A stretch of DNA of 64,000 bases from Pseudochelatococcus sp. (GCF_050946405.1 NZ_JBMNUS010000013.1:71443-135442); one strand, 5' to 3'. Counted from the first letter of the stretch, positions 26,401 through 50,836 are shown. Notes: generated by a model not told the origin, from the letters alone. Program-made: numbers and translations.

Positions 26401-29400
26401 GAAGCGCCGACCTATCCCTTCATCGGCAAGACGCGCGTGCTGCCGACGGCCGGTGCGGATTCCCGCGCCGGCGAAGCGCAGGCGGCCGGCCGGGCGGAAG
26501 CGCTGCCCGTGCCCGCGGCGACAGCCCCGGTGGCGGGGCGCGAGGCGGTTGCGCACGTCATCCGCAGCGTCCTGCGCGGCGTCGCCGGGCTCCAGCCGGA
26601 GGAGGTGGCGGGCGATGCGACATGGTTCAGCCTCGGCCTCGATTCGCTGCTGATCGTCCAGCTCCAGCAGGCGCTGGCGCGCGAATACGCCATCGACCTG
26701 CCGCTCGCCGCCGTCATGGAGAACGGCGATACGCTCGACCGGCTCGTGACCCTCGTGGTGGAGCGCCTGCCCCGCGTGGCGCAAGCGCCGGTGGAAGCGC
26801 CCGTTATGGAGACGCCCGCTGCGGCGGCGGCTGGCGGCGAAGGCGTCGAGGGGCTTCTCGCCCGGCAGATCGACGCCATGAGCGCGCTGTTCAGCCAGCA
26901 ACTCGCGTTGCTTCAGGGCGGAGTCCGGCCGGCGGTTTCGACGCCCGCCGCTATCCCGGACGTCGCAGTCGCCGGGCCGGCCCCGGCCGCGCCGAAACGC
27001 GAGATCAAGGGCCTGTTCAAGGCGCTGCCGGCGCGCAGGGAGCAGGCGAATCCGGCGCAGGAGGCGCATGTGCGCCGCCTTGCCGCCGCCTTCAACGCCC
27101 GCACGCGCTCCTCGAAGGAGCATACGGCTGCCTATCGTGGCGTCTACGCCAACCCGCGCGCCGTGATCGGCTTCCGCCCCGAGTGGAAGGAGCTGAACTA
27201 CCCCCTGCATGTGGAGCGGGCGGAAGGGCCGTATGTGTGGGATATCGACGGCCATCGTTATGTCGACATCACCATGGGTTTCGGCGTGACGCTGTTTGGC
27301 CACAACCCGCCCTTCGTGCGCGAGGCGCTGGCGGCGGAGCTTGCCGCCGGCTTTCCCGTCGGCCCGCAGAGCGCGCGGGCCGGGCGGGTCGCCGCCATGA
27401 TCAGCGCCATGACCGGCGTGGAGCGGGTGGCGCTGTTCACCACCGGCAGCGAGGCCGTCATGGTCGCGCTGCGGCTGGCGCGCGCGAAAACCGGCCGGCG
27501 CAAGATCGTGACCTTCGTCAATTCCTATCACGGCACGTTCGACGGCGTGCTGGCGGTGGGCTGGACCGAGGGCGCGCGCGTGACGACCATGCCCGTGAGC
27601 GAAGGTACGCCGCAAGGCATGGTCGATGACGTGATCGTGCTGCGCTACGGCGATCCGGCCGCGCTCGACGTCATCCGCCAGCACCTCGCCGAACTGGCGG
27701 CCGTGGTGGTGGAGCCGGTGCAGAGCCGCGACCCGGCGGTGCAGCCGCGCGCCTTCCTGCACGAGTTGCGGGCGCTGACGGCGCAGGCGGGCGTCGCGCT
27801 CGTTTTCGACGAGACGATCACCGGCTTTCGCGTGCATCCCGGCGGGGCGCAACGCCATTTCGGCATCGAGGCCGATATCGTCACCTACGGCAAGGTCGTC
27901 GGCGGCGGCATGCCGATCGGCGTCGTCTCGGGAAGGCGGCATTATCTCGACGGCGTCGACGGCGGCGACTGGCAGTATGGCGACGATTCCGTTCCTTCCG
28001 CCCGCACCGCCTTCGTGGCCGGCACCTTCAACAACCATCCCCTGACGGCGGCGGCGGCGGAGGCGGTGCTGAAGCACCTCGCCGCCGAGGGGCCGCAGTT
28101 GCAGGAGCGGCTGAACGCCCGCACCGCCGCGATGTGCGCCGAGCTAGACGCCCTGTTCGCGGCCGAGGACGTGCCCGTCCGCATGGCGCATTTCAGCTCG
28201 CTGTTCCGTTTCGAGTTCGCCGGCGACACCGAGATCCTCAACTATCACCTGCTCAACAACGGCGTTTTCGTCTGGGAGGGGCGCAACTGCTTCCTCTCCA
28301 CCGCCCACAGCGACGACGACATCCGCTTCATCGTCGAGGCGGTGCGCAAGGGCATCGCGGAGATGCGGGCCGGCGGATGGCTGCCGCCGTCGCCGGGCCG
28401 CGCCGCGCCCGAGGCGCGCCAAGAGCATGGTGCGCGCGAGGAGGCAGGACCGGCGCCGCTCGGCCGGGGGCAGGGCGAGATGCTGGCGCTGCTCGAAGCG
28501 CGGCCGGAGGCGACGCTCGCCTATAACGAGATGGTGGCCTTCGCGCTCGACGGCCCGCTCGACCGGGAGGCGCTGCGCCGCGCCTTCGCCGGGCTCGTGC
28601 GGCGCCACGAGGCGCTGCGTTGCGCGGGCATCGACGAGACCGGCTGGCGCGCGGCGGCTCTTCCGCCCGCCGACCTGCCGGCGGAAGAGCCGGCCGAAGA
28701 AGGAGCGGTGATGGCGCGCCTGGCGCGCGAACTCGAAACGCCGTTCGATCTGCAACGCGGGCCGCTCATGCGCGCGCTGCTGCTGCGCCTTGCGCCGCAG
28801 CGGCATGTGGTGGCTTTCACCGTGCATCACATCGTCGCCGACGGCTGGTCGCTCGGCCTGATGGCGGGCGAACTCGCGGCGCTTTACGCCGCCGAACGGG
28901 CCGGCGTGGCGGCGGCGCTGCCGCCGGCCGAATCGTTCCGCGCCTTCGTCGCCTGGACGCAGGGCTTGGACGGCGGCGCGTCTCCGATGGCGGAAGACAG
29001 CGCGCCCGTCGTCCTGCCGGCCGCCGATTTCCCGCATCGCGCGTCCTTCCGCGGCGGGCGCGTCCACCGCCGCCTGTCGGCGGGCGGGCGGGAAGGCGAA
29101 GGCGTGTTCGATGCCGCGAGGCGTTTCGCGCGCGCGCATGACACAAGCCCGTTCACGGTGCTGCTCGCGGCCTATGCGCTGCTGCTCGGCCGCCTGTCGG
29201 ACCAGCGCCGGCTGACCATCGGCATTCCCGTCGCCGGCCATACGGAGGCCGGCTTGCCGGTGATGGTGGGGCAGGCGTCGGCGGTGCTGCCGCTGACGCT
29301 GGAACTCGATCCGCAAGCGGATTTCGCAGCCCTCGTTGCCCATGTGAAGGCGGCGCTGGCCGATGCCCGGCACGGCGTCGGCGGGCTCTTCACCGCGCAG

Positions 29401-32400
29401 GGCGGGCGGGGCACCGATGTCAACGTGCTGTTCAACCTCGACCGCGGTTTCCGGCTCGATTTCGAGGGATTGGGGCTGACGTGGATATCGCCTCCGGTCA
29501 GCCGGCCGAAAAAGGACCTGTTCCTCAACGTGCTGGAGCTGAACGGCGAAGCGCTGCTCGATCTCGATCATGACGGTGCGCTGGGCGATTCCGCCACGGC
29601 GGAGCGCTGGCTCGATTCCTTCCTGTCGCTGCTCGCCGAGGGGCTGCGCGCGCCCGCGACGCCGATCGCGCGCCTGCCGCTCTCCGCCGCTGACCGGGCG
29701 GCACAGGCGGATGATGTGCGCACGCGCGACGGCTTCGGCGCGCCGGCCGCCATCGGCACGGTCGCGCCGGTGGAGGCGCGCGACGATGCGGGGCTTTGGG
29801 CCGACACGGGGCGGCTCGGCCGGCTGCGGGCGGATGGCGGCGTCGAGGTGCTGGGCGAGGCGCGGCGTTTCCTGCGCACGCGCGGCGGCTGGCTCGATCT
29901 CGACCTTCCGGCGCGGGTGCTGCGGGAACACCCGGCGCTGGCCGATGCCGCCGTGATCGCGGAATCCGGCGGGCTGACCGCCTTCGTGACGCCGCGCGCG
30001 GGCGGGCAGGTCGACGGGCAGGCGCTCGCCGCCTATGCGGCGCTGCGGCTGCCGCCCGAGGCGCGGCCGGCCGCCTTCGTCGTGACGGATATCGCGCGCG
30101 ATGCCGGGGGGCGCGCCCTCCTGCGCGCCGATCACGGCGAGCGTCTCGCCACGCGCGCCCTCACGCCCGCCCGCACCGATGCGGAGAAGGCGGTCGCGGC
30201 GATCTGGGCCGAGGTTCTCGGGCTGGAGGAAGTCGGCGTCCTCGACAGCTTCTTCGACCTCGGCGGTCACAGCCTCAAGGCGCTCGCCATCCTCGCGCGC
30301 GTCGAGGCGCGGCTCGGGCGCACCGTGCGGCTGCGCGCCTTCTTCGAGGAGCCGACCGTGGCGGGGCTCGCGTCACGTCTGGGCGCGGGCGAGGCGCATG
30401 CCGTCATTCCGACCGCGGCACCGGCGGCGCATTATCCGGCGTCGAACGCGCAGGCGCGGCTGTGGATGCTCGACCGGATCGATCCCGGCCTTGCCGCCTA
30501 CAACATCGGCTTTTCGCTGCGCAGCGCCGCGCCTCTCGACGAAACCGCGCTGCGGATCGCGCTGGCGGGCCTCGCCGGGCGGCACGAGAGCCTGCGCACG
30601 GCGCTCATCGACCATGACGGCCTGCCGCGCCAGACGATCCTGCCCGCGTTGCAGCCCGAGCTGCGCATCGAGGATGCGGTGGGCGCGGACGCGGCGGCGC
30701 TCGTCGCGCGGGAGCGGGCCATCGCCGCCGAGCCCTTCGCGCTGGAGCGCGCGCCGCTCTGGCGGGCGGTGCTGCTGCGCGGGGGGCAAGGGGATATCGA
30801 GCCGGCGGGCGACCGTCTGGTGTTCGTGCTGCATCATGCCATTGCCGATGTGTGGTCGGTCGGCGTTTTCGTGCGGGATTTTCTGGCGTTGTACGCAGAG
30901 GCCGGCGGCGCACGGCTGCCGGCGCTGGCGCTGCAATACCGGGATTATGCGGTCTGGCAGGTGGGGCGGCCGGAGCCGCATCTTGACTGGTGGGTCGCGG
31001 CGCTGGCGGATGCGCCCCGGCTGGAGCTGCGGCCCGACCGGCCGCGCCCGCCGCTCAAGACCTTCAACGGCGATCATGTCGTTCTCGATGTGCCGGGGCC
31101 GGTCGCGGCGGCCCTCAAGGCGCTTGCCGCCGTCAACGGCGCGAGCGCGTTCACGGCGGTGGTCGCGGCGCTCTGCAACCTGCTGTGGGAAGAGACGGAG
31201 GCGCGCGACATCGTCATCGGCACGGTGACGGCGGGGCGCGACCATCCGGCGCTCGCGGACCAGATCGGTTTCTTCGTCAACACGCTGGCGCTGCGCGCGC
31301 GGGTGGCGCCGGAGGCGGGCTTCCTGCCGCTGCTCGCGGGCGTGCGCGATGCGCTGCTGGCGGCGGCCGAACATGGCGATACGCCGCTCGACCGGGTGGT
31401 CGAGGCGTTGAACCGCCCGCGCGATCCGGCGCGCAATCCGCTGTTCGAGGTCGTCGTGGTCATGGACGACCGCGAGGAGATCGACCGGCTGCTCGCCGGC
31501 ACCGGCTTCGCGCTCGCGGAAATCGACACGGCGACGGCGCAGTTCGACCTCACGCTTTATGTCACCGACGGCGCGGACGGCATCCGCATCAAGGCGACCT
31601 ACAATACCGACCTGTTCGACCGCGCCCGCATCGAGGGACTGATGGCGCGGCTGGCGGGGCTGATGGCGGGGGCGGCCGCCGATCCGGCGCGCGCGCTCGC
31701 CGCGCGGGCGCAGGGGGGCAGGGCGGCGCATGGTTCCGCGCCTGGCCAACGGCAAGGCTACGCGCCGTCGCGCCATCAGGAGCGGCTGTGGTTCGTGGAT
31801 CACTTCGAGCGCGGCGTGCTCTATCCGTCCGGGCCGACCTATTACAACATGCCGTTCGTGGTGCGCGTCGACGGCGCGGTCGATGCCGCGCGGCTCGCGG
31901 CTGCCGCTGCGGCGCTTGCGGCGCGGCATGAGGCGCTGCGCGCGGCGCTCGTCACGCAGGGCGACCGTCCGGCCGTCGAGGTCGCGGCGGCTGCGGCGCT
32001 GCCGGTTGCGGAGATTGCGGCGCCGGCGGGGGCGGGGCTTGCCGCAGTCGAGGAGGCGAGCCGCGCGGCCTTCGACCTCGATACGCCGCCGCTCGCCCGT
32101 CTGACGCTCTGCCGCGAGGCGGGGAGCGGCGCCTGCTGGCTCGCCCTGACGGTTCATCACGCCATGGGCGACCGGGCGGCGCTGCGCACGCTGGCGGAGG
32201 AACTCGCCCGCCTTTATGCCGACCCGGCCGCCGCCCTGCCGGAAATCCGCCCCTTCGGCGCGGCCCATGCGCTGCCGGAGCGGGCGGTGGAGGCCGGCCA
32301 TGAGGCGGATGCCGCCTATTGGCGCGAGGCGCTGGCGGGCGTTTCCGCGCTCGTGCTGCCGACGGACCGGCCCCGCCCCGCGATCCACACCTTCACGGCG

Positions 32401-35400
32401 GGCCGCGTCGCGGGGCGGCTCGACGCGGCGCTGCGCGGGCGGATCGACGCGCTGGCGGCGGCGCTCGGCGTGAGCCGGGCGGATGTGCTGCGCGCCGGTT
32501 ATCAGGCGTTGCTGCATCGTCTTTCCGGCCAGCGGGATGTCGTCATCGGCGAGACCGTGCAGCCGCCGCAACCGGCGCGGACGGTCGGGCCGCTCGCCAA
32601 TCTCCTGCCCTTGCGGCTCGACGTGGAGGCCGGCGAGGGCTTTGCCGCGCTGGTGCGGCGCGCGGCGGCGCGGCGGCAGGCGGATGCGGCGCATGGCGCG
32701 ATCCCCTTCGATCTGCTGGTGCTGGCGGTGAAGCCGCGCAACGACATGAGCCGCACGGCGCTGTTCGATGTGCTGTTCCACCATGAGAATGCGACCGCCG
32801 CCCTGCCGGCCGGGTGGGCGGCGGTCGACACCGGGCTCGGCTGGGGCAAGTACGATTTCGTGCTGTCCGTGGTGCCGGATGGCGACGGGCTGGCGGTGAG
32901 CCTCGTCTACAACCGCGACCTTTTCGACGCCGCCAGCGCGCAGGCCGTCCACGCGCGCTACGGGCAACTGCTGGCGGCGGCGCTGGCGCAGCCGGAGCGG
33001 CCGCTGTCTGCGCTCGACATCATGCTGCCGGGAGAGCGCGCGGCGCTGCTGGCCGAAGCCGGCGAGGTGGCCGATTACCCGCGCGGCCTCACGCTCACGG
33101 CGCGTTTCGAGGAGATGGCGGCGCGCCACGGGGCGCGCATCGCCGTCACCGACACCGACGGGGAACTGACCTATGCGGCGCTCGACGCGCGCGCCAACCG
33201 GCTGGCGCATCGCCTGCGCGCGCTCGGCGCGGGACCGGAGGCGCTGGTCGGGCTGTTCGTGGGGCGCACCTGGCGCATTCCCGCTGGCATTCTCGGCATT
33301 CTCAAGGCGGGCGCGGGCTATGTGCCGATCGATCCCGCCTATCCCGACGAGCGCATCCGCTTCATGGTGGCGGATTCGGGCATGCGGCTCATCGTCACCG
33401 ACGCTGAAAACGCGGCGGCGGCGCACCGCCTCGGCATTGCTACGGTGGTGATCGATGATCTGGCGGAGGACCTGCCCGTCGCGGCGACACCCGAAAATGC
33501 CGCGCCCGAAAATGCTGCGCCCGAGAACGTCGCTTACGTCATCTACACGTCCGGTTCCACCGGCATGCCCAAGGGCTGCGTCATCGAGCACCGCAACGTC
33601 ATCCAGCTCTTCTTCCACGAGGGGCGGCCGTTCGCCTTCGGGCCGGATGACGTGTGGAGCCTGTTCCACTCCGCCTGTTTCGACTTCTCGACGTGGGAGA
33701 TCTACGGCGCGCTGCTCTTCGGCGGCCGGCTCGTCGTCGTGCCGCAGGCGCTGACGCGTGAGCCCGCCGCCTTTCTGGAACTCGTCGCCCGCGAGGGGGT
33801 GACGGTGCTGAGCCAGACGCCGACCGCCTTTTACGGGCTGATCGAGGCGGCCCGGCAGCGCCCCGGCCTGCATCTTGCGCTGCGCGAGATCGTCTTCGGC
33901 GGGGAAGCGCTGGCGCCGGCCCGGCTTGCCCCGTGGCGGGCGCTCCACCCGGCCGCGCGCCTCGTCAACATGTACGGCATCACCGAAACGACGGTGCATG
34001 TGACGTTCAGGGAGATCGGCGACGCCGAGATCGCGGAGGGCCGCAGCGTCATCGGCCGGCCGCTGCCGTCCTGCGGCGTGTTGCTCGTCGGCCCCGATCT
34101 CGCGCCCTGCCCGCGGGGCGTGGCCGGCGAGATCGTGGTCGCGGGCCACGGCGTCGCCCGCCGCTACCTGAACCGGCCGGAACTCACGGCGGAGCGCTTC
34201 ATCGCGCACCCGGACCTGCCCGGCGGGCGCGTCTACCGCTCCGGCGATCTCGGCCGGATCGGGCTTGACGGCGAGCTGGTCTATCTCGGCCGCATGGACG
34301 ATCAGGTCAAGATACGCGGCTTTCGCATCGAGCCTGGCGAGATCGAGCGCCGGCTGGTCGCGCATCCCGCGATCCGCGATGCGGCCGTTCTCGCCGAGGG
34401 CGGCGAGGGCGGCGAGGGCGCGGCGGGCGAGAGCCTCTGCGCCTGTGTCGTCACCGATGCGCCGCCCGGCCGCGAGGAGCTGTTTCACTATCTGGCGGAC
34501 AAGCTGCCCGACTACATGATTCCGTCGCGCTTCCTGCGCGTGGCGCGCATCCCGCTCACGGCCAACGGCAAGGCGGACCGCCGGCGGCTCGCGGCGGAGG
34601 GCGGCGAGGCGATCGGCGCGGGGGGCGGCGCGGAGGAAGGCCGGGCGCCGCGAACGCCACTGCAAAAGGCGGTGGCGCGCATCTGGTGCGAGGTGCTGGG
34701 CGTGCCGCAGGTGGGGCTCGACGACAATTTCTTCGCGCTCGGCGGCCATAGCCTCAAGGCCAATCAGGTCGTGGTGCGCATCCGCCAGCGCCTCGGCGGC
34801 AGTCTCGACCTGCGCGATTTCTTCAGCGCGCAGACGCTCGCCGTGCTGGTCGAGCTGATCGAGCGGCGCGGGCTCGGCGCGGCGGGCACTATTGCCCCGG
34901 CGCCGTCCGCGCCCGACTATCCGCTCTCCTTCGCGCAGCGCCGGCTGTGGCTGGTGCAGAACATGAACCCCGATAGGGTGGCCTACAACATGGCCGGCGC
35001 CTTCGTCGTGGAGGGGGCCGTCGACCGGGAGCGGCTGGCGGCGGCGTTCCGGGCGCTGGCGGTGCGCCACGAGATCCTGCGCACGCGCTTCGTCTCGCGC
35101 CACGGCGAGCCCCGGCAGGTGGTGGATGCCGGCATCGACGGGCATATGGCGGTGTTCGAGGCCGGCCATGACGCGGGAAGCGGCGGGATGGCGGCCGTGG
35201 AGCGGCTGCTCGCGGCGGAGCTTCGCCATGTCTTCGATCTCGCGCGCGGGCCGCTGGCGCGGGTGCATCTGGCGGAGCTGCCCGTCAAAGGGCACGGCGG
35301 CTGCGCCATCATCATCAACCTGCATCATATCGTCTCCGACGGCTGGTCGGTGACGGTCATGCTGCGCGAGCTGGAGGCGCTCTACCGCGCGGCGCTGGCT

Positions 35401-36357: not shown

Positions 36358-38247
36358 ATGTGCGGCATCGTGGGATTTCTCGACCGGGATGGCGCGCCGC
36401 GCCCGCACGATCTGCTGCGCCGCATGGCGGAGGCCGTGCGCCACCGGGGGCCGGATGACGAGGGCTTCTTCACCGGCGACGATATCGGTCTCGGGTTCCG
36501 CCGTCTGTCGATCGTCGATCTGGAAGGCGGGCGGCAGCCGATGTTCGCCGGCGACGGGCGTGTGGCGGCCATCTGCAACGGCGAGATCTACAACCACGCC
36601 GAGCTGCGGGCCGATCTCACGGCGCGCGGCCACCGCTTCCGCACGCGCTGCGACACGGAGGTGATTCCGGCGCTGTTCCTCGAATACGGGCTCGACTTTC
36701 CGCGCCGCATCAATGGCCAGTTCGCCTTTGCCGTCTACGATCGGGAGACGCGCCGGCTGGTGCTGGGGCGCGACCATGTGGGCATCGCGCCGCTGTTTCA
36801 TGCCGAGGTCGGCGGGCTGCTGTTGTTCGGCTCGGAAATCCGGGCGCTGCTGTGCCATCCGGGCCTTGCCCGCGATGTCGACCTGACGGCGCTCGACCAG
36901 ATCCTGACCTTTCCGGGGCTGGTGAGCCCGCGCACGATCCTGGCGAACGTGCGCGCGCTGCCGCCGGGGCATCTGCTGGTGGCCGATCCCGGCCGGCCGC
37001 CGCGCCTCGATCGCTTCTGGGATCTCGATTTTCCGCGCCATGATGAGTTTCCGCGCCATGACGAGATCGGCCCGCCCGGCCGGGCGGACGATTACGTCGA
37101 CGAGCTGGACGCCGCGTTGCGGCAGGCGGTGCGCTACCGGTTGCAGGCCGATGTGCCGGTCGCCGGCTATCTGAGCGGCGGCCTCGACAGTTCGCTCGTC
37201 GCCGCCATCGTCGCCGATCTGGAGCCGGGGGCCACGCGGCATACGTTCTCCATCACCTTTCCCGACAGGGCGATCGACGAGCGCGAGCCGCAGCGCCTCG
37301 TCGCGGCGAGGCTCGGCACCGCCCATCACGAGCGGGAGATCGATCCCGCGCGACTCGCCGCCGGGCTCGACCGCATCGTGGGCTGTGCCGAAGCGCCGCT
37401 GCGCGAATCCTATAACGTATGCTCGCTGCATCTGTCGGGCATGGTGCGCGAGGCCGGGCTCAAGGTGGTGCTCACCGGCGAGGGCGCGGACGAGCTTTTC
37501 GGCGGCTATGTGGGCTACAGGCTCGATGCGGAGCGCGCGCCTGACGCGGACGACCCTTACGATCTCGACGCGCTGATCGAGGGCGAGTGGCGCGAGCGCC
37601 TGTGGGGAGACAGCCGTTTCTTCTACGAGAAGGATTATGGCGCGAGCCGCGACATCCGCCGCGAACTCTACGCGCCGGCGCTGGCCGAGCGCTTCGAGGC
37701 GTTCGACTGCCTCGCCCATCCGCTTGTCGACCGCGCGCAGATCGAGGGCCGGCATCCGTTTCATATCCGCTCGTATCTCGATTTCAAGCTGCGCCTGGCC
37801 GATCATCTGCTGGCGGATCACGGCGACAGGGTGAGCTTCGCCAATTCCGTCGAGGCGCGCTATCCGTTTCTGGACATCGGCGTCATCGACGTGGCGCGCC
37901 GCATCCCGCCCGCCCTCATGGTGCATCAGGGCGAGGAAAAGCATATCCTCAAGCGTCTCGCCCGGCGCTACCTGCCGGCGCAGATCGTGGAGCGCAAGAA
38001 GTTCAGCTTCGTCGCCCAGAGCAGCGCCACGCTGCTGCGCGAGGGCGTGCCGCGCGTGCGCGAGGTGCTCGACGAGGCACGCGTCGCGGCGGACGGCTAC
38101 TTCAGCCCGGAGGCGGTCGCGCATCTCAAGCAGCGGCACGCCGCGCCGGGCGCGGAACTCAACCAGACCTTCGAAGACGACTTCCTGATGGTCGCACTGA
38201 CCTTCGGGATCCTGCGCGAACAATTCGATCTGCCGAAACTCTCATGA
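36358..38247 (+). CDS. asparagine synthetase (glutamine-hydrolysing) family amidotransferase, AsnB-like
   Basis: N-terminal MCGIVGF (Cys2 Ntn glutaminase), PP-loop SGGLDSS in C-terminal synthetase domain; starts 3 nt after megasynthetase stop, stop overlaps next NRPS start (ATGA). Confidence 0.85.
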   Translation: MCGIVGFLDRDGAPRPHDLLRRMAEAVRHRGPDDEGFFTGDDIGLGFRRLSIVDLEGGRQPMFAGDGRVAAICNGEIYNHAELRADLTARGHRFRTRCDTEVIPALFLEYGLDFPRRINGQFAFAVYDRETRRLVLGRDHVGIAPLFHAEVGGLLLFGSEIRALLCHPGLARDVDLTALDQILTFPGLVSPRTILANVRALPPGHLLVADPGRPPRLDRFWDLDFPRHDEFPRHDEIGPPGRADDYVDELDAALRQAVRYRLQADVPVAGYLSGGLDSSLVAAIVADLEPGATRHTFSITFPDRAIDEREPQRLVAARLGTAHHEREIDPARLAAGLDRIVGCAEAPLRESYNVCSLHLSGMVREAGLKVVLTGEGADELFGGYVGYRLDAERAPDADDPYDLDALIEGEWRERLWGDSRFFYEKDYGASRDIRRELYAPALAERFEAFDCLAHPLVDRAQIEGRHPFHIRSYLDFKLRLADHLLADHGDRVSFANSVEARYPFLDIGVIDVARRIPPALMVHQGEEKHILKRLARRYLPAQIVERKKFSFVAQSSATLLREGVPRVREVLDEARVAADGYFSPEAVAHLKQRHAAPGAELNQTFEDDFLMVALTFGILREQFDLPKLS

Positions 38248-41200
38248 CAGGACAAGGCCCCGTGCACTCCACCATGCAGCCTCCCGTGCAGCGTCCCATG
38301 CAGCGTAGCTCCTACGTCGACCGGTTCGAGGAGAATGCACGGGCGCGCCCCGCCGCCGCCGCGCTGGCGACGGCGGCGGGTGAAGTGTCCTACGGCGCGC
38401 TCGACGCGCGGGCGCAGCGCCTCGCCCGGCGGCTCGCGCGGCTGGGGGCGGGGAAGGGCGTCATCGTCGGCCTGTTTCTGGACGCCGACGAAACCTATGT
38501 CGCGGCGCTGCTCGGCGCCGGCAAGACGGGCGGCGCCTTCCTGCCGCTGCCGCCGGACCTGCCGCCGCTGCGCGTCGCCGCCTGCCTCGCCAAAGCGGAA
38601 TGCGGGATCGTCGTGACGCTGGGCCGCCACCGCGCCGCGCTGGATGCGGCGCTGGCTGAAGCCGGCCGATCGGTCGCGGTCATCGAGGCGGATGCGCCGG
38701 ACGATGCCGGCGACGCCGCGCCGGTGGCGCGCGCCATCGGCCCTCACGATCCCTGCTACGTCATGTTCACGTCGGGCTCCACCGGCGCGCCGAAGGCCAT
38801 TCTGGGGCCGCATCGCAGCCTCTCCCACTTCCTGCGCTGGGAGGTCGGCGAGTTCGGGCTGGATGAGACGGTGCGCGGCTCGTGGCTCGCGCCCGTCACC
38901 TTCGATGTCAGCCTGCGCGACATCCTCGTGCCGCTCATGGCCGGGGGCACGCTCTGCATTCCCGATGCCGAGACGCGGATGGTGCCGCGCAAGCTGGTCG
39001 ACTGGCTGGCGCGCGAAAAGGTGACGCTGGTGCATTGCGTGCCGACGGTGCTGCGCCTGATCACGCGCGAGCTGGCCGACCGCGGCGGCGATGCCGGCCT
39101 TGCGGTGCGTCATCTGCTGGTGGCGGGCGAGCCGCTGCTCGGCGCGGATGTCGCGGCCTGGCGGGCGGCGGCAGGCGGGCGCGCCGAGGTCGTGAACCTC
39201 TATGGCCCGTCGGAAACCACGCTGGCGAAGGTGTTCCACCGCATCGGCGAATTGCCCGCCGATCCGCGGCGGGTGCTGCCCATCGGCCGGCCGCTGCCCG
39301 ACACATCGGTGCTCGTTCTTTCCAACGGCCGGCTTTGCGGCCCGCAGCAGATCGGCGAGATCCACATCCGCACCGCCTATCCCTCGCTCGGCTACCTGAA
39401 CGACGCGGCGCTGACGGCGGCGAGCTTCATCCGCAATCCGCTCGGCAACGACGATGCCGACATCGTCTACAAGACCGGCGATCTGGGGCGCTACCTGCCG
39501 GACGGCACCGTCGAATGCCTCGGCCGGCAGGACAATCAGGTCAAGGTCAATGGCGTGCGCATCGAGCTTGCCGAGATCGAGGTCGCGCTGCGCGCCGTCG
39601 CGGGCATCGCCAAAGCGGCGGCGGCGGTGCATGCGGGCGGCGGGGCCGATCCCGTGCTCGTGGGTTATTATGTGCCGGATGCCGGCGCGGCGCCGTCGGC
39701 GGAGGCGATCAAGGCGCAGCTCGGGCGCATCCTGCCGGCGGCCATGCTGCCGCACGTGCTGGTGCGTCTCGACGACCTGCCGCGCACCATCAGCGGCAAG
39801 CTCAATCGCAAGGCGTTGCCGCGCCCGGAGGAGCTGTTCTACGCCGAGCATGCCTATGTGGCGCCGCAGGGCGAGACGGAAGACAAGCTCGCGGCCATCT
39901 GGCGCGAGATCTTCGGCCTGACGCGCGTCGGCGTCGAGACCGCCTTTCACGATTTCGGCGGCGACAGCCTGCGGGCGATCCGCGCCGTGCAGAAGATCTT
40001 CCAGACATTCTCCGTCGAGATCAGCCTGAAGGATTTTCTCGCCGCCGCGACGATCCGGGAACTGGCGCGCCTCGTCGCGGCCGCAGTCCCCGCGCCGGTG
40101 AGCGCCATTGCGCGCGCGGCCGATGCGGCAAGCTATCCCGCCACCCCGGCCCAGAACCGGCTGTGGCGTCTCGACCGGCTCGGCATCGCCCCCACCGCCT
40201 ACAATCTGACGGAAGCGTGCGAGCTGCTGGGGCCGGTGAACGAGGCGGCGCTGGAGCGCGCCTTTCGCGACCTGATCGGCCGCCACGAATCGCTGCGCAC
40301 CACATTCGAGGAGGATGCGGACGGCAACGCGCGCCAGATCGTGCACCATGACACGCCCTGGCGGCTCGAACGCGTCGACCTGCGCCGCCATGCGGAGCCG
40401 GACCGCGCCGCCGCGCTGCTGGCGCGGGACAATGCCGGGCATCGCTTCGACCTGCATCGCGGCCCGCTGCTGCGCGTCGTGCTCGCCCGCCTGCCGGATG
40501 CGGAGGGCGCGGCGCGGCATGTGCTGCTGTTCAACATTCATCACATCGTCGCCGACGTGTGGTCGCTCGGCGTGCTGGTGCGCGAGGTGGCGGCGCTCTA
40601 TGCGGCGGCACTCGCCGGCCGCGACGCCGGCCTTGCGCCGCCGGCGCTGCAATTGCGGGATGTGGCCGTGTGGCAGGCCGGGCGGGCGGCCGCCGGCGCG
40701 CTGGACGGCGACCGCGCCTATTGGCTGGAGCGCTTCTCCGCGCTGCCCGCGCCGCTCGACCTGCCGGCCGACCGGCCGCGCCCGCCGGTGCAGACCTTCA
40801 ACGGCACCACGCGGCGCTTCCGCCTGCCGGCGGACCTGACCGGGCAGCTCGACGGCCTCGCGCGCCGGCACGGCACGACGCGCTTCGCCGTGGTCACGGC
40901 GCTGACGAAGGCGCTGCTGCACCGTTATACCGGACAGACGGATATCGTCGTCGGCAGCCCCGTCGCCGGCCGCACGGATGCGGCGCTGGCGGACCAGATC
41001 GGCTATTACGTCAACACGCTCGCGCTGCGCGACACTGCGGAGGCGGGAGCGCGCTTCGCCGACCTGCTCGCGCGCGTGGCGGCGACGGTGCGCGAGGGGC
41101 TCGCGCATCAGGATTACCCGTTCGACGCGCTGGTGCAGGAACTGCCGCTCGAACGCGACATGAGCCGCTCGCCGCTGTTCGACGTCATGGTCGTCGACCA

Positions 41201-44200
41201 CGCCTTCGAGGATGGCGACCTGCGGCTGGAGGGCGTGCGCGTCATGCCCTTCGGCGACCGGAACGCCTGGAACTTCAGCCGTTTCGATCTCGTCTTCCAT
41301 TTTCAGGACGAGGCGGACGAGCTGGTGCTCGATCTCAACTACAACACCGACCTGTTCGACGATGCGCGCATCCTGCGCATGGGCGCGCATTTTGCGGAGC
41401 TGGCGCGCGCCGCAGCCGGCGACGAGTCGCAGGCTGTCGGGGAACTTAACCTGCTGCCGGCGGACGAAAGCCGGGAACTGGCCGCTTTCACGCACGGGCC
41501 GGTCGTGGCGCGCGATGCGGCGGCGACCATCGTCTCGACCTTCGTGGCGGCGGCGCGCCGTCACGCCGGGCGCCCCGCCGTCATCGATGCCGGAGGGCGC
41601 GTGCTCTCCTATGGCGCGCTCGACGGGGCGACGGACCGGCTGGCGCACGATCTCATCGCGGCGCATGGCGTCGCCCCCGGCGAGCGCGTGGCGGTGTTCG
41701 CGAGGCGCACGCCGGAATCGGTCGCCGCCATGCTCGCGGTGATGAAGGCCGGCGGCGTCTATGTGCCGATCGATCCCGACTATCCGGCCGCGCGGATACG
41801 GTTCATGCTGCGCCAGGCCGGCTGCCGGCTGGCGCTCGCCGACAGCGGGGCGGCCCCGGTCGCGGATGTGCAGGTCGTCGCCGTCGCGCCCCGGCTCGCG
41901 GCCGGCGACGCGGCGCAGCCCGTCGACCGCAGCGGCGCGGGCGAGGCGGCCTATGTGATCTTCACCTCCGGGTCGTCGGGCGAGCCGAAGGGGGTGGCGG
42001 TCGCCCACGGCGGTTTCGTCAACATGTCGTCGGGGCAGATCGCCCTTTTCGGACTCACGCCCGAGGACCGGGTGTTGCAGTTCGCCTCGCCGTCCTTCGA
42101 CGCCTCGCTCGCCAACATGTTCATGGCGCTGTTCAGCGGCGCGGCGGTGGTGCTGCCGTCTGCCGGCGACATCAAGAACACGGCCGATTTCCTGGCGCTG
42201 CTGGCGCGGAGCGGCACCACGGCGCTCACCCTGCCGCCGACCTATCTGCGCGCGCTGCGGCGGGCGGAACTGGCCGGGGTGAGGGTGCTCATCACGGCGG
42301 GCGAGGAAGCGCCGGCCGCCGACCTGCTCCATTACGCGCAGCGGCTCGCCGCCTTCAACGCCTACGGCCCGACGGAGTTTTCGGTCTGCGCCACGGTGCA
42401 TGAGGTCAGCGAGCGAGACCGCGACCGCCTGCGCCTGCCCATCGGCCGGCCGTTGCCGAATACGAGCGTGCATGTTCTCGATGCCGCGCTCAAGCCCGTC
42501 CCGGTCGGGATCGCGGGGGAAATCTGGCTCGGCGGCAGCGGGCTCGCGCTCGGCTACGAGGGCGATGCGGCGCAGACCGCCGCGCGCTTCGTCACGCATC
42601 CGCACACGGGCGAGCGCCTCTACCGCACCGGCGATCGCGGCGCGTGGCGCGAGGACGGCGCGGTCGATTTCCTCGGCCGCGCCGACGATCAGGTGAAGGT
42701 GGCGGGCCACCGCATCGAGCCGGGCGAGATCGAGGCGGCGATGCGCGCGGTGCCGGGCGTGCGCGACGCCCATGTCGCCACAGTGGCGCGGGCCGACGGC
42801 TCCGCCGCGCTCGCCGCCTGGTACTGCGCGGACGAGCGCGTGGAGCTGTGGCCTTCGGTGGCGGAGTTCTACGTCTACGACGACATCGCCTATGGCAGCA
42901 TGGCCGCCGACGAGGGGCGCAACCGGCGCTACCGCGAGGCTTTCGCGCGCCACCTGCCCGGCAGGACGGTGGTGGATATCGGCACCGGGCCGGTGGCTAT
43001 CCTCGCGCGCCTCGCCATCGAGGCCGGCGCGCGCAAGGTCTACGCCATCGACAGGCTGGAGGCGACGGCGCGCAAGGCGCGGGAGACCGTGGCGGCGCTC
43101 GGCCTCGACGACCGCATCACGGTGATCCACGGCGACGCCCTGACCCTGGAGCTGCCCGAGACGGTGGATTTCTGCATCTCCGAGATCGTCGGCGCCATCG
43201 GCGGGGCGGAGGGCGCGGCGCGCATCATCAACGGCGCGCGCCGCTACCTGAAGGACCCGGCGGCCATGCTGCCGCAGTTCAGCGACACGCGCATCGCGGC
43301 GCTGGCGCTGCCTCACGACCGGCTCGCGCCGGGCTTTTCGGACATCGCGGCGCATTACGTCGACAAGATCTTCGCGGAGGTCGGCCAGCCGTTCGACCTG
43401 CGCCTGTGCCTCAAGAACCTGCCGCGCGAGGCCATCGTCTCCACCGACGCGCCGTTCGAATATCTGGACTACACGCGCGAGGTGCCGGTCGAGGCGACGC
43501 ACACGGTCGAACTCGTCGTCACGCGGGACAGCGAGATCACCGGCTTCCTCGTCTGGCTGCGGCTCGGCGTCGATGCGGATGCGGTGGTGGATATTCTCGA
43601 CAACCCCGGAAGCTGGCTGCCGGTGTGGCTGCCGGCCTTCGCCGTGCCGGTCGCGGTGGCGGCGGGCGACCGCATCGCCATCACCATCGCGCGGCGGCTT
43701 TGCGGCAACGGTTTCAACGTCGACTTCTTCCTCGACGGCACGGTGACGCGGGCGGCCGGCGAGGCGGTGCCGTTCGCCTGCCGCAGCGCGCATTTCGGCG
43801 ACGGCTTCCGCCGCACGCCCTTCCATGCGGGGCTGTTCGCGGGGGAAGGGGTGCCGCGCTTCGAGGCGCCGACGCCGGCCGTGGTGCGCCGTCACCTGCT
43901 GGGCGCGGTGCCGGCGCATGCCGTTCCGTCCTTCCTCGTGCCGCTCGACAGGCTGCCGGTGACGATCAACGGCAAGATCGATCGCGCCGCCCTGCCGGCC
44001 CCCGGCGATGTCGCGGAAGGAGCGCGCCGGGGAGAGGCGCTTGCGCCGCAGACGCCGCTGGAGCGGCAGGTGCTGGATGTGTGGCGCGAGATCATGAGCC
44101 GGCCGGACATGACGGCGGGCGATGATTTTTTCAGCATGGGCGGCGATTCCATCCGCGCCATCCAGATCGTCTCGCGCCTGCGCCAGCTCGGCTGGAAAGC

Positions 44201-45683
44201 CGAAATCCGCGACGTGTTCCAGAATCCGACCGTCGCGCAGTTTGCGGGCGTTCTCGCGCCGGTACGCGCGCGGGCCGATCAGGGCGCGGTTGTCGGCCCC
44301 GCGCCGCTGACGCCGGTGCAGCGCTGGTTTCTCGAAACGAGCGTGCGGCCGGACCATTTCAACCAGGCGGTGGTGTTGCATGCGGAGGCGATCGACGCGG
44401 CCGCGGCCCAGGCGGCGCTCGAAGCCGTCTGGCGTCATCACGACGCCCTGCGCGCGGTCTTCACCCATGATGGCGGCGGCTGGTCGCAGTCCCTGCTCCC
44501 GCCCGGCGAGCCGCCCCGCGTGGTGGAGATCGCAGCCGATGATCCGGCCGCCTTCGCGGAGGCGGCGCGCGCCGTACAGGCGGGTTTCCGCATCGACCGG
44601 GGGCCGCTGCTCGTGGCGGCGCTGCTGGCGCGCGGCGCGGCGACGACGGAGGATGCAGGGGGAAGCCGGCTGCTGCTCTGCGCGCACCATCTCGTGATGG
44701 ATATCGTGTCGTGGGGCATCCTGATCGAGGACTTCACGGCGGCCTACCTGGCTCATCAGGACGGCACGACGCCGCGCCTGCCGGACAAGACGGATTCCTG
44801 CCGCGACCATGCGCGGGCGCTGGAATCGATCGCGGCGCGGGTGGACTGGACCGGCCGGCTCGGCTACTGGCGCGCGCTGGAGCGGGATGCGCCGCTGCTG
44901 CCGGGCTTCGCCGGCCCGTTCCGCGTCGCGGATGCGTTCACCCTCCAGGGTGTGCTGGCCGCCGGGGTGACGGCGGCGCTGCTCGGCCCGGCCAATCACG
45001 CCTATACGACGGGAACGGAAGACCTGCTGCTCGCCGCTCTTGCTCTCGCGATCGAGCGGCATTTCAGCCGCGCCGGGGCGCTGGTGACGGTCGAGAGCCA
45101 CGGCCGCGAATACCCGCTGGCCGATCTTCTCGGCGATGGCGAGGCGCCCGACGTCACCCGCACGGTCGGCTGGTTCACGGCCTTCCATCCGTTCCGGCTG
45201 GAGGCGGCGTCCGGGATCGGCGAGACCGTGCGCGGCGTCAAGGAGGCGCTGCGCCGCGTGCCGGATCGCGGCTGGAGCCATCTCCTGATGCGGACGCTGC
45301 CGGCGGAATGGGTGGTGCCGGACCTGCGGCCGCAGATCGGCTTCAACTATCTCGGTCAGATGCGTTCGGCCCCCGCCGGCGTCGGCCCCTTCGCCGTCGA
45401 CTGGGACGCGCCCGGCGGCGCGGTGGCGGCGGATGCGCACCGTCCGCATGCGATCGACGTGCTGGCCATGGCGGTGGACGGGGAGCTGCGCGTCAGCCTC
45501 GACGTCGACGAGGCGGCGATCGGACGGGAGGCGGGCGAGGTGCTGCTGCGCCGCTTCCTCGCGGCGATCGAGGAAGTCGTCGCCCATTGCCTCGCGCGGG
45601 AAACCGCCGAGCTTACCCCGTCCGACATGACCTACGACAAGCTGTCGCTGGACGATCTCGATCGTCTGCTGCTGGCCGAATGA
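38244..45683 (+). CDS. NRPS: A-PCP-C-A(embedded PRMT-like MT)-PCP-E (about 2479 aa)
   Basis: ATG 38244 (MTGQGP...) within ORF 37587..45683; A3 FTSGSTGAPKA ~38770, PCP FGGDSL ~39960, C HHIVADVWS ~40540, A4 FTSGSSGEPKG ~41960 with A8 QVKVAGHRIEPGEIE ~42700 and A9/A10 (LPVTINGKIDR) ~43960 separated by ~360 aa insert, PCP FFSMGGDSIRAIQ ~44130, epimerase signature PLTPVQRWF / HHLVMDIVSW ~44300/44685. Confidence 0.9.
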   Translation: MTGQGPVHSTMQPPVQRPMQRSSYVDRFEENARARPAAAALATAAGEVSYGALDARAQRLARRLARLGAGKGVIVGLFLDADETYVAALLGAGKTGGAFLPLPPDLPPLRVAACLAKAECGIVVTLGRHRAALDAALAEAGRSVAVIEADAPDDAGDAAPVARAIGPHDPCYVMFTSGSTGAPKAILGPHRSLSHFLRWEVGEFGLDETVRGSWLAPVTFDVSLRDILVPLMAGGTLCIPDAETRMVPRKLVDWLAREKVTLVHCVPTVLRLITRELADRGGDAGLAVRHLLVAGEPLLGADVAAWRAAAGGRAEVVNLYGPSETTLAKVFHRIGELPADPRRVLPIGRPLPDTSVLVLSNGRLCGPQQIGEIHIRTAYPSLGYLNDAALTAASFIRNPLGNDDADIVYKTGDLGRYLPDGTVECLGRQDNQVKVNGVRIELAEIEVALRAVAGIAKAAAAVHAGGGADPVLVGYYVPDAGAAPSAEAIKAQLGRILPAAMLPHVLVRLDDLPRTISGKLNRKALPRPEELFYAEHAYVAPQGETEDKLAAIWREIFGLTRVGVETAFHDFGGDSLRAIRAVQKIFQTFSVEISLKDFLAAATIRELARLVAAAVPAPVSAIARAADAASYPATPAQNRLWRLDRLGIAPTAYNLTEACELLGPVNEAALERAFRDLIGRHESLRTTFEEDADGNARQIVHHDTPWRLERVDLRRHAEPDRAAALLARDNAGHRFDLHRGPLLRVVLARLPDAEGAARHVLLFNIHHIVADVWSLGVLVREVAALYAAALAGRDAGLAPPALQLRDVAVWQAGRAAAGALDGDRAYWLERFSALPAPLDLPADRPRPPVQTFNGTTRRFRLPADLTGQLDGLARRHGTTRFAVVTALTKALLHRYTGQTDIVVGSPVAGRTDAALADQIGYYVNTLALRDTAEAGARFADLLARVAATVREGLAHQDYPFDALVQELPLERDMSRSPLFDVMVVDHAFEDGDLRLEGVRVMPFGDRNAWNFSRFDLVFHFQDEADELVLDLNYNTDLFDDARILRMGAHFAELARAAAGDESQAVGELNLLPADESRELAAFTHGPVVARDAAATIVSTFVAAARRHAGRPAVIDAGGRVLSYGALDGATDRLAHDLIAAHGVAPGERVAVFARRTPESVAAMLAVMKAGGVYVPIDPDYPAARIRFMLRQAGCRLALADSGAAPVADVQVVAVAPRLAAGDAAQPVDRSGAGEAAYVIFTSGSSGEPKGVAVAHGGFVNMSSGQIALFGLTPEDRVLQFASPSFDASLANMFMALFSGAAVVLPSAGDIKNTADFLALLARSGTTALTLPPTYLRALRRAELAGVRVLITAGEEAPAADLLHYAQRLAAFNAYGPTEFSVCATVHEVSERDRDRLRLPIGRPLPNTSVHVLDAALKPVPVGIAGEIWLGGSGLALGYEGDAAQTAARFVTHPHTGERLYRTGDRGAWREDGAVDFLGRADDQVKVAGHRIEPGEIEAAMRAVPGVRDAHVATVARADGSAALAAWYCADERVELWPSVAEFYVYDDIAYGSMAADEGRNRRYREAFARHLPGRTVVDIGTGPVAILARLAIEAGARKVYAIDRLEATARKARETVAALGLDDRITVIHGDALTLELPETVDFCISEIVGAIGGAEGAARIINGARRYLKDPAAMLPQFSDTRIAALALPHDRLAPGFSDIAAHYVDKIFAEVGQPFDLRLCLKNLPREAIVSTDAPFEYLDYTREVPVEATHTVELVVTRDSEITGFLVWLRLGVDADAVVDILDNPGSWLPVWLPAFAVPVAVAAGDRIAITIARRLCGNGFNVDFFLDGTVTRAAGEAVPFACRSAHFGDGFRRTPFHAGLFAGEGVPRFEAPTPAVVRRHLLGAVPAHAVPSFLVPLDRLPVTINGKIDRAALPAPGDVAEGARRGEALAPQTPLERQVLDVWREIMSRPDMTAGDDFFSMGGDSIRAIQIVSRLRQLGWKAEIRDVFQNPTVAQFAGVLAPVRARADQGAVVGPAPLTPVQRWFLETSVRPDHFNQAVVLHAEAIDAAAAQAALEAVWRHHDALRAVFTHDGGGWSQSLLPPGEPPRVVEIAADDPAAFAEAARAVQAGFRIDRGPLLVAALLARGAATTEDAGGSRLLLCAHHLVMDIVSWGILIEDFTAAYLAHQDGTTPRLPDKTDSCRDHARALESIAARVDWTGRLGYWRALERDAPLLPGFAGPFRVADAFTLQGVLAAGVTAALLGPANHAYTTGTEDLLLAALALAIERHFSRAGALVTVESHGREYPLADLLGDGEAPDVTRTVGWFTAFHPFRLEAASGIGETVRGVKEALRRVPDRGWSHLLMRTLPAEWVVPDLRPQIGFNYLGQMRSAPAGVGPFAVDWDAPGGAVAADAHRPHAIDVLAMAVDGELRVSLDVDEAAIGREAGEVLLRRFLAAIEEVVAHCLARETAELTPSDMTYDKLSLDDLDRLLLAE
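42835..43900 (+). other. domain: methyltransferase with PRMT-like signatures inserted between A8 and A9 of A4
   Basis: SAM motif I VVDIGTGPVAIL; PRMT-like pre-motif DEGRNRRYREAF (cf. Dxx RTxxYxxAI); double-E loop ISEIVGAIGGAEG with two Glu 9 apart as in PRMT1 SEWMGYxLxxE; TH-x loop ATHT. Confidence 0.6.
44290..45680 (+). other. domain: epimerization (E) domain terminating NRPS2, with short acidic C-terminal tail (possible COM/docking)
   Basis: LTPVQRWFLE start, HHLVMDIVSW His motif typical of E not C domains; tail TPSDMTYDKLSLDDLDRLLLAE. Confidence 0.7.
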
Positions 45684-50400: not shown

Positions 50401-50836
50401 GACGCCGCGCGCCGCCGTCACGCTGCTGCGGATCGAGCAGGACGCCCATCGCGAGATCGGCGGCATTCCGGGCTACGGCTTCGGCATCGGCATCGGGGCA
50501 AGCACGTATGAACAGGTGCGGTCCGAGGCATCCCTTGCGGTTGCGAAGACTTTCGACGTTTCCCTGGGCGGCTGGAGCGGCCGGCTCACGGGCGAGCTTC
50601 GCGCCGGCCTCGCGCGCGACATCGTGCTGAAGAGCGCGAACGGATGGGTCGACGTGCCCGGTTTCAGCCCCGTCGTCACCGGCGGCTTCAAGCGGAACGC
50701 CTGGGTGATGCCGGTCGGCGGCCGGCTGGAGCTGGCGGCGAGCGACTCGCTCTCCGTCTTCGCCGCCTACGATGGCGCGTTCTCCAGCCTCGGTGGCGTC
50801 AATACGGTGCGCGGCGGCTTACACTGGCGTTTCTGA
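47411..50836 (+). CDS. autotransporter with beta-lactamase-fold (S12 peptidase / class C PBP-like, PF00144-type) passenger
   Basis: Signal peptide; SxxK (GSASKTF) and YxN (YSNTNF) catalytic motifs of class C beta-lactamase/DD-peptidase/D-aminopeptidase fold; central passenger repeats incl. GNGIGTLTVGGY (PATR-like); C-terminal ~280 aa beta-barrel ending ...LHWRF (aromatic terminus). ATG 47411 preferred over 47402 for SD spacing. Confidence 0.8.
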   Translation: MLGTSQWREGGGRWLRRFALGSAAAAAVTGTALAADVSQVGPVLQGFLDATASQGTLQGVAIGVDLPGGEGSWFGGGGYRDIARTEPLGADLQFRIGSASKTFTGTAVLQQVDQGLIGLGDSIDKWVPDLNVPGGDRITVENLLSMTSGIPDYLGAESIHSPGNTILQEWANFHGPAGSHGNADYTPEQLVGAVVDSLGASFGPVGEMFYSNTNFALLGIIAQRASCLGASGCRTIDEMVNGIAASMGLADTVFPASSAFTAPYAETAQVVIGDASYYGVPPGSSFDMTFLDPRVPWAAGAVLSTPADELKWVRQLATNSDGLLSAQTQAERVGVAEPGEVSGVPVFYGLALYAMPGVGSGTYLTGHSGLIGGDTASLFYNPALDVAYAVNFLGYQANALPWFPLYGASDALGRYVYAGREGGNYSSVMILWALDRNVTLALTAQGSCSYGAGPQGAGGDRTCAGDSVRTTPIAVTDGTLTIAPSHLTMGNYYIDPVTGAVSLAQVARPSLAMFGSHSAAVALQGGASLVLPQGATAELWGTNSATVSMTGADNAAHIGGTLLTYGVDSVAVRIMGDRNRVNVLPTGAVVGASAPAIAMSGRDNAAVIGGSVTTYGHGIERIAIAGEGGGNRVEVEPTGYVGGDIALAGDGNRVRVDGIVSGHVPMAGGDAVLSGEGVITGVVGGGGTVAPGNGIGTLTVGGYAGRDTRLMIETGPGGASDLLAVAGPASLTGGSLHVTPPPAAASGIYNVLSAGAVEGAFAAATTGGRVGLGVQYTPTAVNVAAVNPFLFDAAVRTGAADTLRNLDLFEERAAAFAASATSAAPAGAARGPAAGAQAENLKEWFSRRGASAAGSRAAGAAVWASAYGAFDRHAADGPVPTIASEGGGVAVGADAEPLPGLLVGAMGAYSRTQATTPANPGMKFSSDAYKAGVYGAYEAGRVLFSASLLAGRGDDTTTRAVESGALAGVAQGSFDDFRLAARVGARATFDVGAGVRLTPRAAVTLLRIEQDAHREIGGIPGYGFGIGIGASTYEQVRSEASLAVAKTFDVSLGGWSGRLTGELRAGLARDIVLKSANGWVDVPGFSPVVTGGFKRNAWVMPVGGRLELAASDSLSVFAAYDGAFSSLGGVNTVRGGLHWRF

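Follow-up and report, generated by a model that had tools for sequence, protein, structure and literature searches.

A conserved adenylation-domain remnant in the first amino-acid module of an uncharacterised family of proteobacterial lipopeptide synthetases

How can an elongation module of a nonribosomal peptide synthetase (NRPS) contribute to its product when the adenylation (A) domain between its condensation (C) domain and its carrier (thiolation, T) domain is reduced to a remnant? This question is raised by a 64-kb stretch of DNA from Pseudochelatococcus sp. (NZ_JBMNUS010000013.1:71443-135442; the window, meaning here the whole stretch that was analysed), which contains a lipopeptide-type gene cluster. 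The first synthetase of this cluster, NRPS1, is a hybrid of polyketide synthase (PKS) and NRPS that shows in Pfam searches the order FAAL-ACP-KS-AT-ACP-AMT-C1-A*-T1-C2-C3-A2-T2-C4 (FAAL, fatty acyl-AMP ligase; ACP, acyl carrier protein; KS, ketosynthase; AT, acyltransferase; AMT, aminotransferase), where A* stands for the remnant. An initial annotation, made from the sequence alone, had described C1 and T1 as separated by a merely vestigial A domain, and this description holds: the module belongs to the type in which the A core with motifs A1-A6 and the specificity pocket has been lost and the C-terminal subdomain (Asub) has been kept. We propose, with a probability of about 0.45, that C1-A*-T1 functions as an A*-type elongation module and that T1 obtains its amino acid in trans from a cluster-encoded enzyme.

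The gap between the end of C1 (around amino acid 2681) and the start of T1 (around amino acid 2851, both counted from nucleotide 21640) measures 169 amino acids, close to the 170 or so first estimated, and the peptide strings quoted from it at that time are present in frame 1. When Pfam was run on sub-segments, the Condensation family reached nucleotide ~29683 and PP-binding covered T1, while the sole match between them was AMP-binding_C (PF13193), a borderline one with 23.7-25.1 bits for a cut-off of 24.5. The AMP-binding core (PF00501) gave no match between C1 and T1 even at E<=1, which answers the concern that a full-length A domain had been overlooked. A custom profile built from 57 complete A domains (520 positions) matched the relic at positions 400-500 only (E 5.6e-15), whereas it matched the intact A2 over its whole length. 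Furthermore, a phmmer search against the PDB aligned the relic together with T1 to the Asub-PCP (peptidyl carrier protein) portions of LgrA, PvdL, SrfA-C and others, from motif A7 onward.

The A* region itself is instructive as to what was lost. After C1, a linker stub (IARLPLSAADRAAQA) is the N-terminal breakpoint of the lost core, as judged from its alignment with the N-terminus of A2 and with the orthologues. Motif A7 reads ADTGR in place of YxTGD (Asp to Arg), A8 reads GEARRFLRTRG in place of GRxDxQVKIRG (Lys to Arg), and A10 reads GGRALLR in place of NGKxDR (Lys to Arg) beside a deletion of three amino acids. Because the A7 aspartate and the A8 and A10 lysines are all replaced, A* is predicted to be catalytically dead. 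Between the linker stub and A* lies a stretch of 24 amino acids, DDVRTRDGFGAPAAIGTVAPVEAR, that is strongly kept in the closest orthologues and that MAFFT aligns on the A6 hairpin xLDxxxxPxPxGVxGELxxxG; its counterpart in two orthologues (L087 and L088) reads PIGVPAPL for the canonical PxGVxGEL. The similarity of the window sequence to A6 in the custom profile was not statistically significant, and the stretch is a probable relic of the A6 beta-hairpin, a suggestive assignment only. About 25 amino acids between A6 and A7 are also gone. The initial annotation had assigned the remnant to A8-A10 alone and counted A1-A7 as absent; the assignment to the C-terminal subdomain and the loss of A1-A5 with the specificity pocket stand, whereas the start has to be moved, as the relic begins at A7, whose place is still occupied by ADTGR, and the probable A6 hairpin lies ahead of it.

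An AlphaFold2 model of C1-A*-T1 (53-sequence alignment) had a mean pLDDT (predicted local distance difference test) of 81, with values mostly of 85-97 in C1 and of ~89-96 in the Asub core, a confident T1, and 39-61 in the linker and the hairpin. In Foldseek this model aligned to complete C-A-PCP modules (EntF, LgrA and SrfA-C) with about 400 gap columns at the place of the A core. The relic is thus confidently predicted by the model to fold as an Asub-like unit between C and T. Both flanking domains would be competent as judged by their motifs, HHxxxDG in C1 and GGHSL in T1 being intact, and the phosphopantetheine serine of T1 (codon 30271-30273, inside FFDLGGHSLKAL) is retained in every orthologue.

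As the source is a metagenome-assembled genome (MAG) and NRPS genes are rich in repeats, the absence of the A domain might reflect an assembly collapse in repetitive DNA or a frameshift that conceals the core. We regard this as practically out of the question: an independent Logan assembly (SRR31066337) is identical over 19.3 kb, including positions 28460-30390; long internal repeats are absent, the internal DNA similarity of the region being limited to 95 nucleotides between T1 and T2 (74%); another frame cannot hide an A core because only 510 nucleotides lie between C1 and T1; and the architecture recurs in eight more loci, which come from other organisms.

These loci were found by genome and metagenome scans and by using homologues of the AsnB-type gene that follows NRPS1 as anchors, and they show the order AMT-C1-A*-T1-C2-C3, which is thus present in nine loci including the window. 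The genome scan gave Methylobacterium sp. EM32 (L004; 62% identity and the same relic) and the metagenome scan a more distant contig (L082; 42-50% identity), whereas the AsnB anchors led to a JGI metagenome contig (L085), the MAG 'Rhizobiales bacterium 32-66-11' (L087), two Logan contigs (L088 and L091), Azospirillum sp. TSH100 (L090) and the gammaproteobacterium Endothiovibrio diazotrophicus (L092). In seven of the eight the order continues as A2-T2-C4, the AsnB gene and a second synthetase starting with A3-T3; the exception is L082, whose contig ends inside C3. The cluster family is therefore spread over Hyphomicrobiales, Rhodospirillales and Chromatiales, that is, over Alpha- and Gammaproteobacteria. 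Pairwise identity of the linker-A*-T1 segment goes down to 36-40%, the C1 motif HHI(V/I)ADGWS and the serine of the T1 motif GG(H/Q)SL are invariant in the nine lineages, and the A10 lysine is Ser, Thr or absent in all the orthologues. Kept in nine loci, the relic appears from these comparisons to be ancestral to the cluster family and not a recent lesion. The reading frame is intact, as had been noted when a clean in-frame deletion was proposed, and it is the implied recent event that does not stand. Full A domains at this site, which the initial annotation had suggested looking for in relatives, were found in more distant AMT-C relatives, namely Plantactinospora and three cyanobacteria, where the order is the canonical AMT-C-A-T.

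The descent of A* from one of the A domains of the cluster could not be traced, its identity to any of them being an uninformative 30-38%, and in a representative protein library the first 67 residues of the query were covered by its own cluster only. Other matches in genome contigs, many of them to the entire query inside some 2 kb, were rejected as A-less modules; the ones that were read (L052 and L013) are ordinary Asub-T-C arrangements in which the C domain had matched C1 out of order. Remnants of the same kind exist elsewhere. One of them, P0083 (L084, 1916-4990), is a separate protein of 1024 amino acids with the order C-A*-T-TE (TE, thioesterase), encoded near a tryptophan-halogenase gene. 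The A* of P0083 and that of P0085 match the custom profile significantly at positions 342-367 and 394/400-518, and because these unrelated proteins carry the same A* layout, the hairpin-plus-Asub remnant is a recurring form. A different situation was observed in the metagenome contig Ga0302320_10012342 (L083, 4160-14212), which has KS, AT, AMT and a luciferase-like monooxygenase followed by C-A-T, with an A domain that is full length and degenerate, without P-loop, FDxS, NxYGPTE, TGD or A10 lysine. Here, too, the first module behind an AMT has a dead A domain, and this second case is probably independent.

The A* module type is already known, and here it is fixed across an uncharacterised family of proteobacterial lipopeptide clusters; in the literature on this cluster family in Methylobacterium or Azospirillum nothing relevant was found, nor any product. 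According to the glidonin report, module 13 of GdnB is a C-A*-T-TE module whose A* consists of Asub only, Acore and the Stachelhaus residues being absent, and such A* domains are called rare (PMC10587159). The relics described here, in P0083 and in P0085 have the same kind of layout, although the GdnB module is terminal and carries a TE, while the module of NRPS1 is the first for an amino acid and more C, A and T domains come after it. The same source presents KtzH as having a truncated, non-functional A* whose carrier is loaded in trans by KtzN, the A* being critical for the transfer (PMC10587159). As described there, KtzH resembles C1-A*-T1 in being an internal elongation module with a truncated A*; it differs in that the kutzneride cluster encodes the loader KtzN, whereas the window has no stand-alone A domain, and in belonging to an actinomycete depsipeptide line and not to a proteobacterial FAAL-PKS-AMT lipopeptide line.

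Carriers without a cis A domain in otherwise normal lines offer another comparison. CmnA-A1 loads the A-less CmnI (PMC12400406); SyrB1 and SyrC combine an A-T protein with a shuttle, and the A-T protein Alb04 complements an inactive A domain (PMC8949500); the stand-alone A domains Cal22/23 load an A-less carrier (PMC7539972); and the type II thioesterase (TEII) LgnA takes Thr from LgnB-T0 and passes it to the C1-T1 part of LgnD, which lacks an A domain (PMC8748450). LgnD (C1-T1-C2) is similar to our case in that an A-less first module is followed by a C domain and the cluster contains a TEII. By contrast, CmnI, module 9 of SyrE and LgnD have no Asub relic as described and their donors are known, and there is no free A-T protein like LgnB in the window, where A3-T3 is N-terminal on NRPS2 and fused to further modules. 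MycA and ItuA (FAAL-ACP-KS-AT-ACP-AMT-C-A(Asn)-T) follow the identical logic of loading and beta-amination as far as C1, and by analogy with MycA the AMT would provide a beta-amino fatty acyl donor for C1; the differences are that the A domain after C1 is cut to Asub, that two more C domains come after T1 and that there is no Asn code in the cluster.

How, then, could T1 be supplied? No cis A domain can serve it, and for this reason loading in trans, which had been suggested from the start, is the natural reading. In the mechanism that we propose, A* would sit between C1 and T1 as a folded spacer or for docking. T1 would be phosphopantetheinylated and would then obtain its amino acid in trans from an enzyme of the same cluster, most likely an A domain of the line used a second time, A2 or A5, acting either directly, like CmnA-A1 with CmnI, or by way of the cluster's TEII, in the manner of LgnA. 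C1 would finally join the beta-amino fatty acyl chain from the FAAL-PKS-AMT part to the residue on T1, as in MycA. We favour a loader encoded in the cluster because the cluster, complete in the window, includes no stand-alone A domain (among all sizeable open reading frames, ORFs, of the 64 kb) and no MbtH protein (by ORF scan and six-frame motif scan), as the initial annotation had advised checking, and because the family occurs in two classes of proteobacteria and its core genes are the same throughout, so that self-sufficiency would be expected. What the cluster does hold is four cis A domains, a TEII and a phosphopantetheinyl transferase (PPTase); the TEII, the PPTase and the tandem C2-C3 had been passed over in the annotation, and all of them bear on how the module may work.

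Specificity codes were read off an alignment to GrsA-PheA, and we take that of A2 to be Thr-like, that of A4 aromatic and that of A5 Asp-like, while the code of A3 is not known to match a reference code. An Asn-type code is absent among the four cis A domains of the cluster. A3 has atypical core motifs (SGSTGAPKAILGPH, QVKVNGVRIE and TISGKLNRK), and the Arg in its pocket may indicate an acidic substrate. The annotation had called A3 C-less and given it as an example of a possible loader of T1. It is not C-less: A3-T3 is the acceptor half of an ordinary split module, whose C domain, C4, ends NRPS1, while A3-T3 starts NRPS2, and neither A2 nor A5 is a worse candidate than A3. Among the carriers, T2 (55%) and after it T5 (47%) resemble T1 most, which as a hint to the loader is weak evidence at best. 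Within A4, a methyltransferase (MT; ~42700-43950) is inserted between motifs A8 and A9; it matches Methyltransf_25/18 and, weakly, PRMT5, and the module of A4 then has an epimerization (E) domain with the motif HHLVMDIVSW.

As for the TEII, its role could be that of an editing enzyme or of an aminoacyl shuttle, and, unlike LgnA, it may simply be the former; L082 and L090 have a TEII too, adjoining NRPS1 in L082 and placed after the ABC gene in L090. The secreted alpha/beta-hydrolase of the cluster was considered as a SyrC-like shuttle and found unlikely, having a signal peptide and a Ser nucleophile. The same functional module could instead depend on a gene at another place in the genome, either for a stand-alone A domain like KtzN or Cal22/23 or for an A-T didomain. 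Such is the usual solution for A* and A-less modules (KtzN, SyrB1, Alb04 and Cal22/23; PMC10587159, PMC8949500, PMC7539972), and one A-T protein would repair at once the missing acceptor of C2 and the missing donor of C3. We nevertheless consider it unlikely, if still a serious contender, as no such gene occurs in the window with its whole cluster or in the partial views of the eight related loci, and a family present in Hyphomicrobiales, Rhodospirillales and Chromatiales should carry its own loader.

Several points weigh against the proposal that C1-A*-T1 works with a loader from its own cluster. The enzyme that loads T1 was not pinpointed in the 64-kb window that was searched, and that T1 is aminoacylated at all, by which enzyme and with which amino acid, is what we infer. 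Moreover, in the closest pair of loci (L004 11216-11917 and L085 3358-4056) A*-T1 is near neutral, with dN/dS values (Nei-Gojobori) of 0.76 for A* (12 synonymous and 23 nonsynonymous changes) and 1.09 for T1 (3 and 9), as compared with 0.13 for the Asub of A2 and 0.14 for T2, although these counts are small and not to be over-read. These values, a T1 without a cognate A domain and a surplus of C domains that permits a bypass would all suit a module that is inactive and skipped, the chain passing from ACP2 directly to C2 or C3 and onto the Thr of T2. We judge this rather unlikely: the frame, the C1 motif and the T1 serine are kept across nine lineages with synonymous divergence at or near saturation, an unused segment of 640 amino acids should decay or be deleted, and the deep pairs give dN/dS values of 0.15-0.32 for T1 and 0.25-0.38 for C1. 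In detail, these were A* 0.41, T1 0.32 and C1 0.38 between the window and L004, and A* 0.40, T1 0.15, AMT 0.17 and C1 0.25 between L087 and L088. Taken together, these ratios indicate that A* has been under long-term purifying selection, yet clearly less than a working Asub, and with such weaker constraint a scaffold or docking role would fit better than catalysis.

A further point against our proposal is the conclusion reached for glidonin, where the C domain of GdnB module 13 couples free putrescine and the peptide is released, the A*-T pair being considered structural (PMC10587159). By the same logic C1 could use a soluble amine or amino acid as the acceptor for the chain on ACP2, the only role of A*-T1 being to keep the protein folded; GdnB has the same Asub-only A*, and the independent P0083, with its C-A*-T-TE order, the same A* layout. 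This seems very unlikely for NRPS1, as the module is the first and not the last, C2-C3-A2-T2-C4 and two more synthetases come after it, and a chain coupled to a free amine would be set free, so that the domains further along would have no donor.

The last difficulty is the number of C domains: C1, C2 and C3 are three apparently active C domains for only two carriers, which our model leaves unaccounted for. C2 is a canonical LCL-like domain (best PDB match, the C domain of Txo2 with 205 bits; C5 motif IGFFVNT), and although LCL-type by sequence it occupies the usual position of an E domain. All eight lineages in which its motif is readable keep it, the query having failed to find it in L082, and the HHxxxD of the divergent C3, which is fused to A2, is conserved in the nine. 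C2 has T1 as donor but no cis acceptor, and C3 has T2 as acceptor but no cis donor; either a carrier in trans acts between C2 and C3, or one of the two has a tailoring function. Of the loose ends this is the most interesting, as it bears directly on the number of residues that the region of the A* module contributes. In L087 the region was called as two genes, and this was discarded as a natural protein boundary between C2 and C3, the break being a frameshift within C2 (~5072), which may stem from faulty sequencing or may mean that C2 is truly disrupted.

Directly downstream of NRPS1, as first annotated, there is an AsnB-like gene in strict synteny: it lies between NRPS1 and NRPS2 in the window and in all seven further loci that reach this junction, with 65-80% identity, and it is conserved better than most of the NRPS domains. 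Its score against TIGR01536 (cut-off 267.1), the N-terminal MCGIVG nucleophile and the intact SGGLDSS PP-loop mark it, by profile and motifs, as a bona fide glutamine-dependent amidotransferase, which would plausibly make Asn from Asp, be this free, carrier-bound or in the peptide; on AsnB acting on carrier-bound Asp nothing relevant was found in the literature. The functional link to T1 that the initial annotation invited is speculative and only circumstantial: the cluster has no A domain with an Asn code, and a homologue with 50% identity also follows complete NRPS modules in L068, a Burkholderiaceae MAG. Still, the pieces could be joined in a single reading in which there is no dedicated loader, A* docks a borrowed A core or an aminoacyl group borne by the TEII, AsnB amidates Asp on T1 and C2-C3 joins in. 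Asp coming from A5 would then become Asn on T1, giving an iturin-like beta-amino-acyl-Asn start without an Asn-specific A domain, and C2 could be a tailoring C domain at the position of an E domain. We hold this combination as a whole to be decidedly unlikely.

Regarding the genetic context, the whole cluster is visible in the window (65-75% G+C), and its flanks are of primary metabolism and unrelated to it, with transport, redox, regulatory and chemotaxis genes at 1-21.6 kb upstream and beyond 60.4 kb downstream. The coordinates of its features are collected in Table 1. The ORF of NRPS1 extends over 21640-36354 in frame 1, the actual start being the Met at 21763, and the protein is identical to WP_433460181.1 of a Pseudochelatococcus sp. 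MAG (Hyphomicrobiales, Chelatococcaceae); its JGI label is 'iturin family lipopeptide synthetase A'. A search of the PLSDB plasmids gave no close relative. The protein encoded after the ABC exporter has 1144 amino acids, with a beta-lactamase/PBP (penicillin-binding protein) fold at its N-terminus and an autotransporter beta-barrel at its C-terminus; its gene is also located 3' of the ABC exporter in two Hyphomicrobiales-type loci (L085 from 21469 and L087 from 21092) and is absent from the corresponding place in the Azospirillum locus (L090). Two Arg-rich ORFs on the plus strand (50858-51814 and 58441-59295) were dismissed as spurious, the genuine genes there being those for the TEII and the PPTase on the minus strand.

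Table 1. Features of the lipopeptide-type cluster in the window and, in the last three rows, positions of AsnB in other loci (numbered within each locus).
Feature	Position	Strand	Basis and remarks
NRPS1, hybrid PKS/NRPS, 4863 amino acids	21763..36354	+	Pfam
AMT, class-III aminotransferase domain	27067..28389	+	PF00202, 173.7 bits; 73-82% identity in orthologues
C1, condensation domain	28507..29682	+	PF00668; HHIVADGWS at 28825-28851, motif invariant in nine lineages
C-A linker stub IARLPLSAADRAAQA, 15 amino acids	29665..29709	+	Alignment with N-terminus of intact A2 and orthologues
Conserved 24-amino-acid stretch DDVRTRDGFGAPAAIGTVAPVEAR	29710..29781	+	MAFFT
A*, Asub relic, A7 to A10	29803..30132	+	PF13193, phmmer against PDB, custom profile (hidden Markov model)
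A-T linker	30133..30189	+	Least conserved part; 36% identity, dN/dS 0.92 against L004
T1, carrier	30190..30396	+	PF00550, 59.4 bits
C2, canonical LCL-like condensation domain	30427..31719	+	PF00668; HHAIADVWS at 30832-30858
C3, divergent condensation domain fused to A2	31777..33009	+	PF00668, PDB matches; HHAMGDRAAL at 32155-32184
A2, complete A domain	33037..34599	+	PF00501, PF13193; code DFWSVGMVHK
AsnB-type glutamine-dependent amidotransferase	36358..38247	+	TIGR01536, 434.7 bits
NRPS2, A3-T3-C5-A4(MT insert)-T4-E	38262..45683	+	Pfam, motifs; gene start taken from L001
A3	38262-39800	+	Code DVRHLALLAK
A4	in NRPS2	+	Code DAATIAAVCK
ABC exporter	45724-47364		
Beta-lactamase-fold/autotransporter protein	47402-50836		
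Type II thioesterase (TEII)	50819..51703	-	PF00975, 107.7 bits
DUF697 and Band-7 genes			Listed between TEII and NRPS3
NRPS3, C7-A5-T5-TE	~54329..58387	+	Pfam; start approximate
A5	in NRPS3	+	Code DLTKLGHIGK
Sfp-type PPTase	58261..59166	-	PF01648, 46.9 bits, and PF22624
Secreted alpha/beta-hydrolase	59292-60407		
AsnB in L004	17706-19613		
AsnB in L085, L087, L088, L090-L092	10001-~11875		
AsnB in L089	2034-3905		

Finally, A* modules have been described as rare, with two characterised cases, and here the design is fixed across three orders of bacteria. The nine sequences form a natural series in which to ask why a dead Asub is kept, be it as a scaffold or as a docking site for a foreign A core. 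As Azospirillum sp. TSH100, Methylobacterium sp. EM32 and Endothiovibrio diazotrophicus are culturable carriers of the cluster, the loader, AsnB and the tandem C domains are accessible in this family. For genome mining, structures predicted from these clusters would come out at least one residue short if the trans-loaded carrier were not counted.

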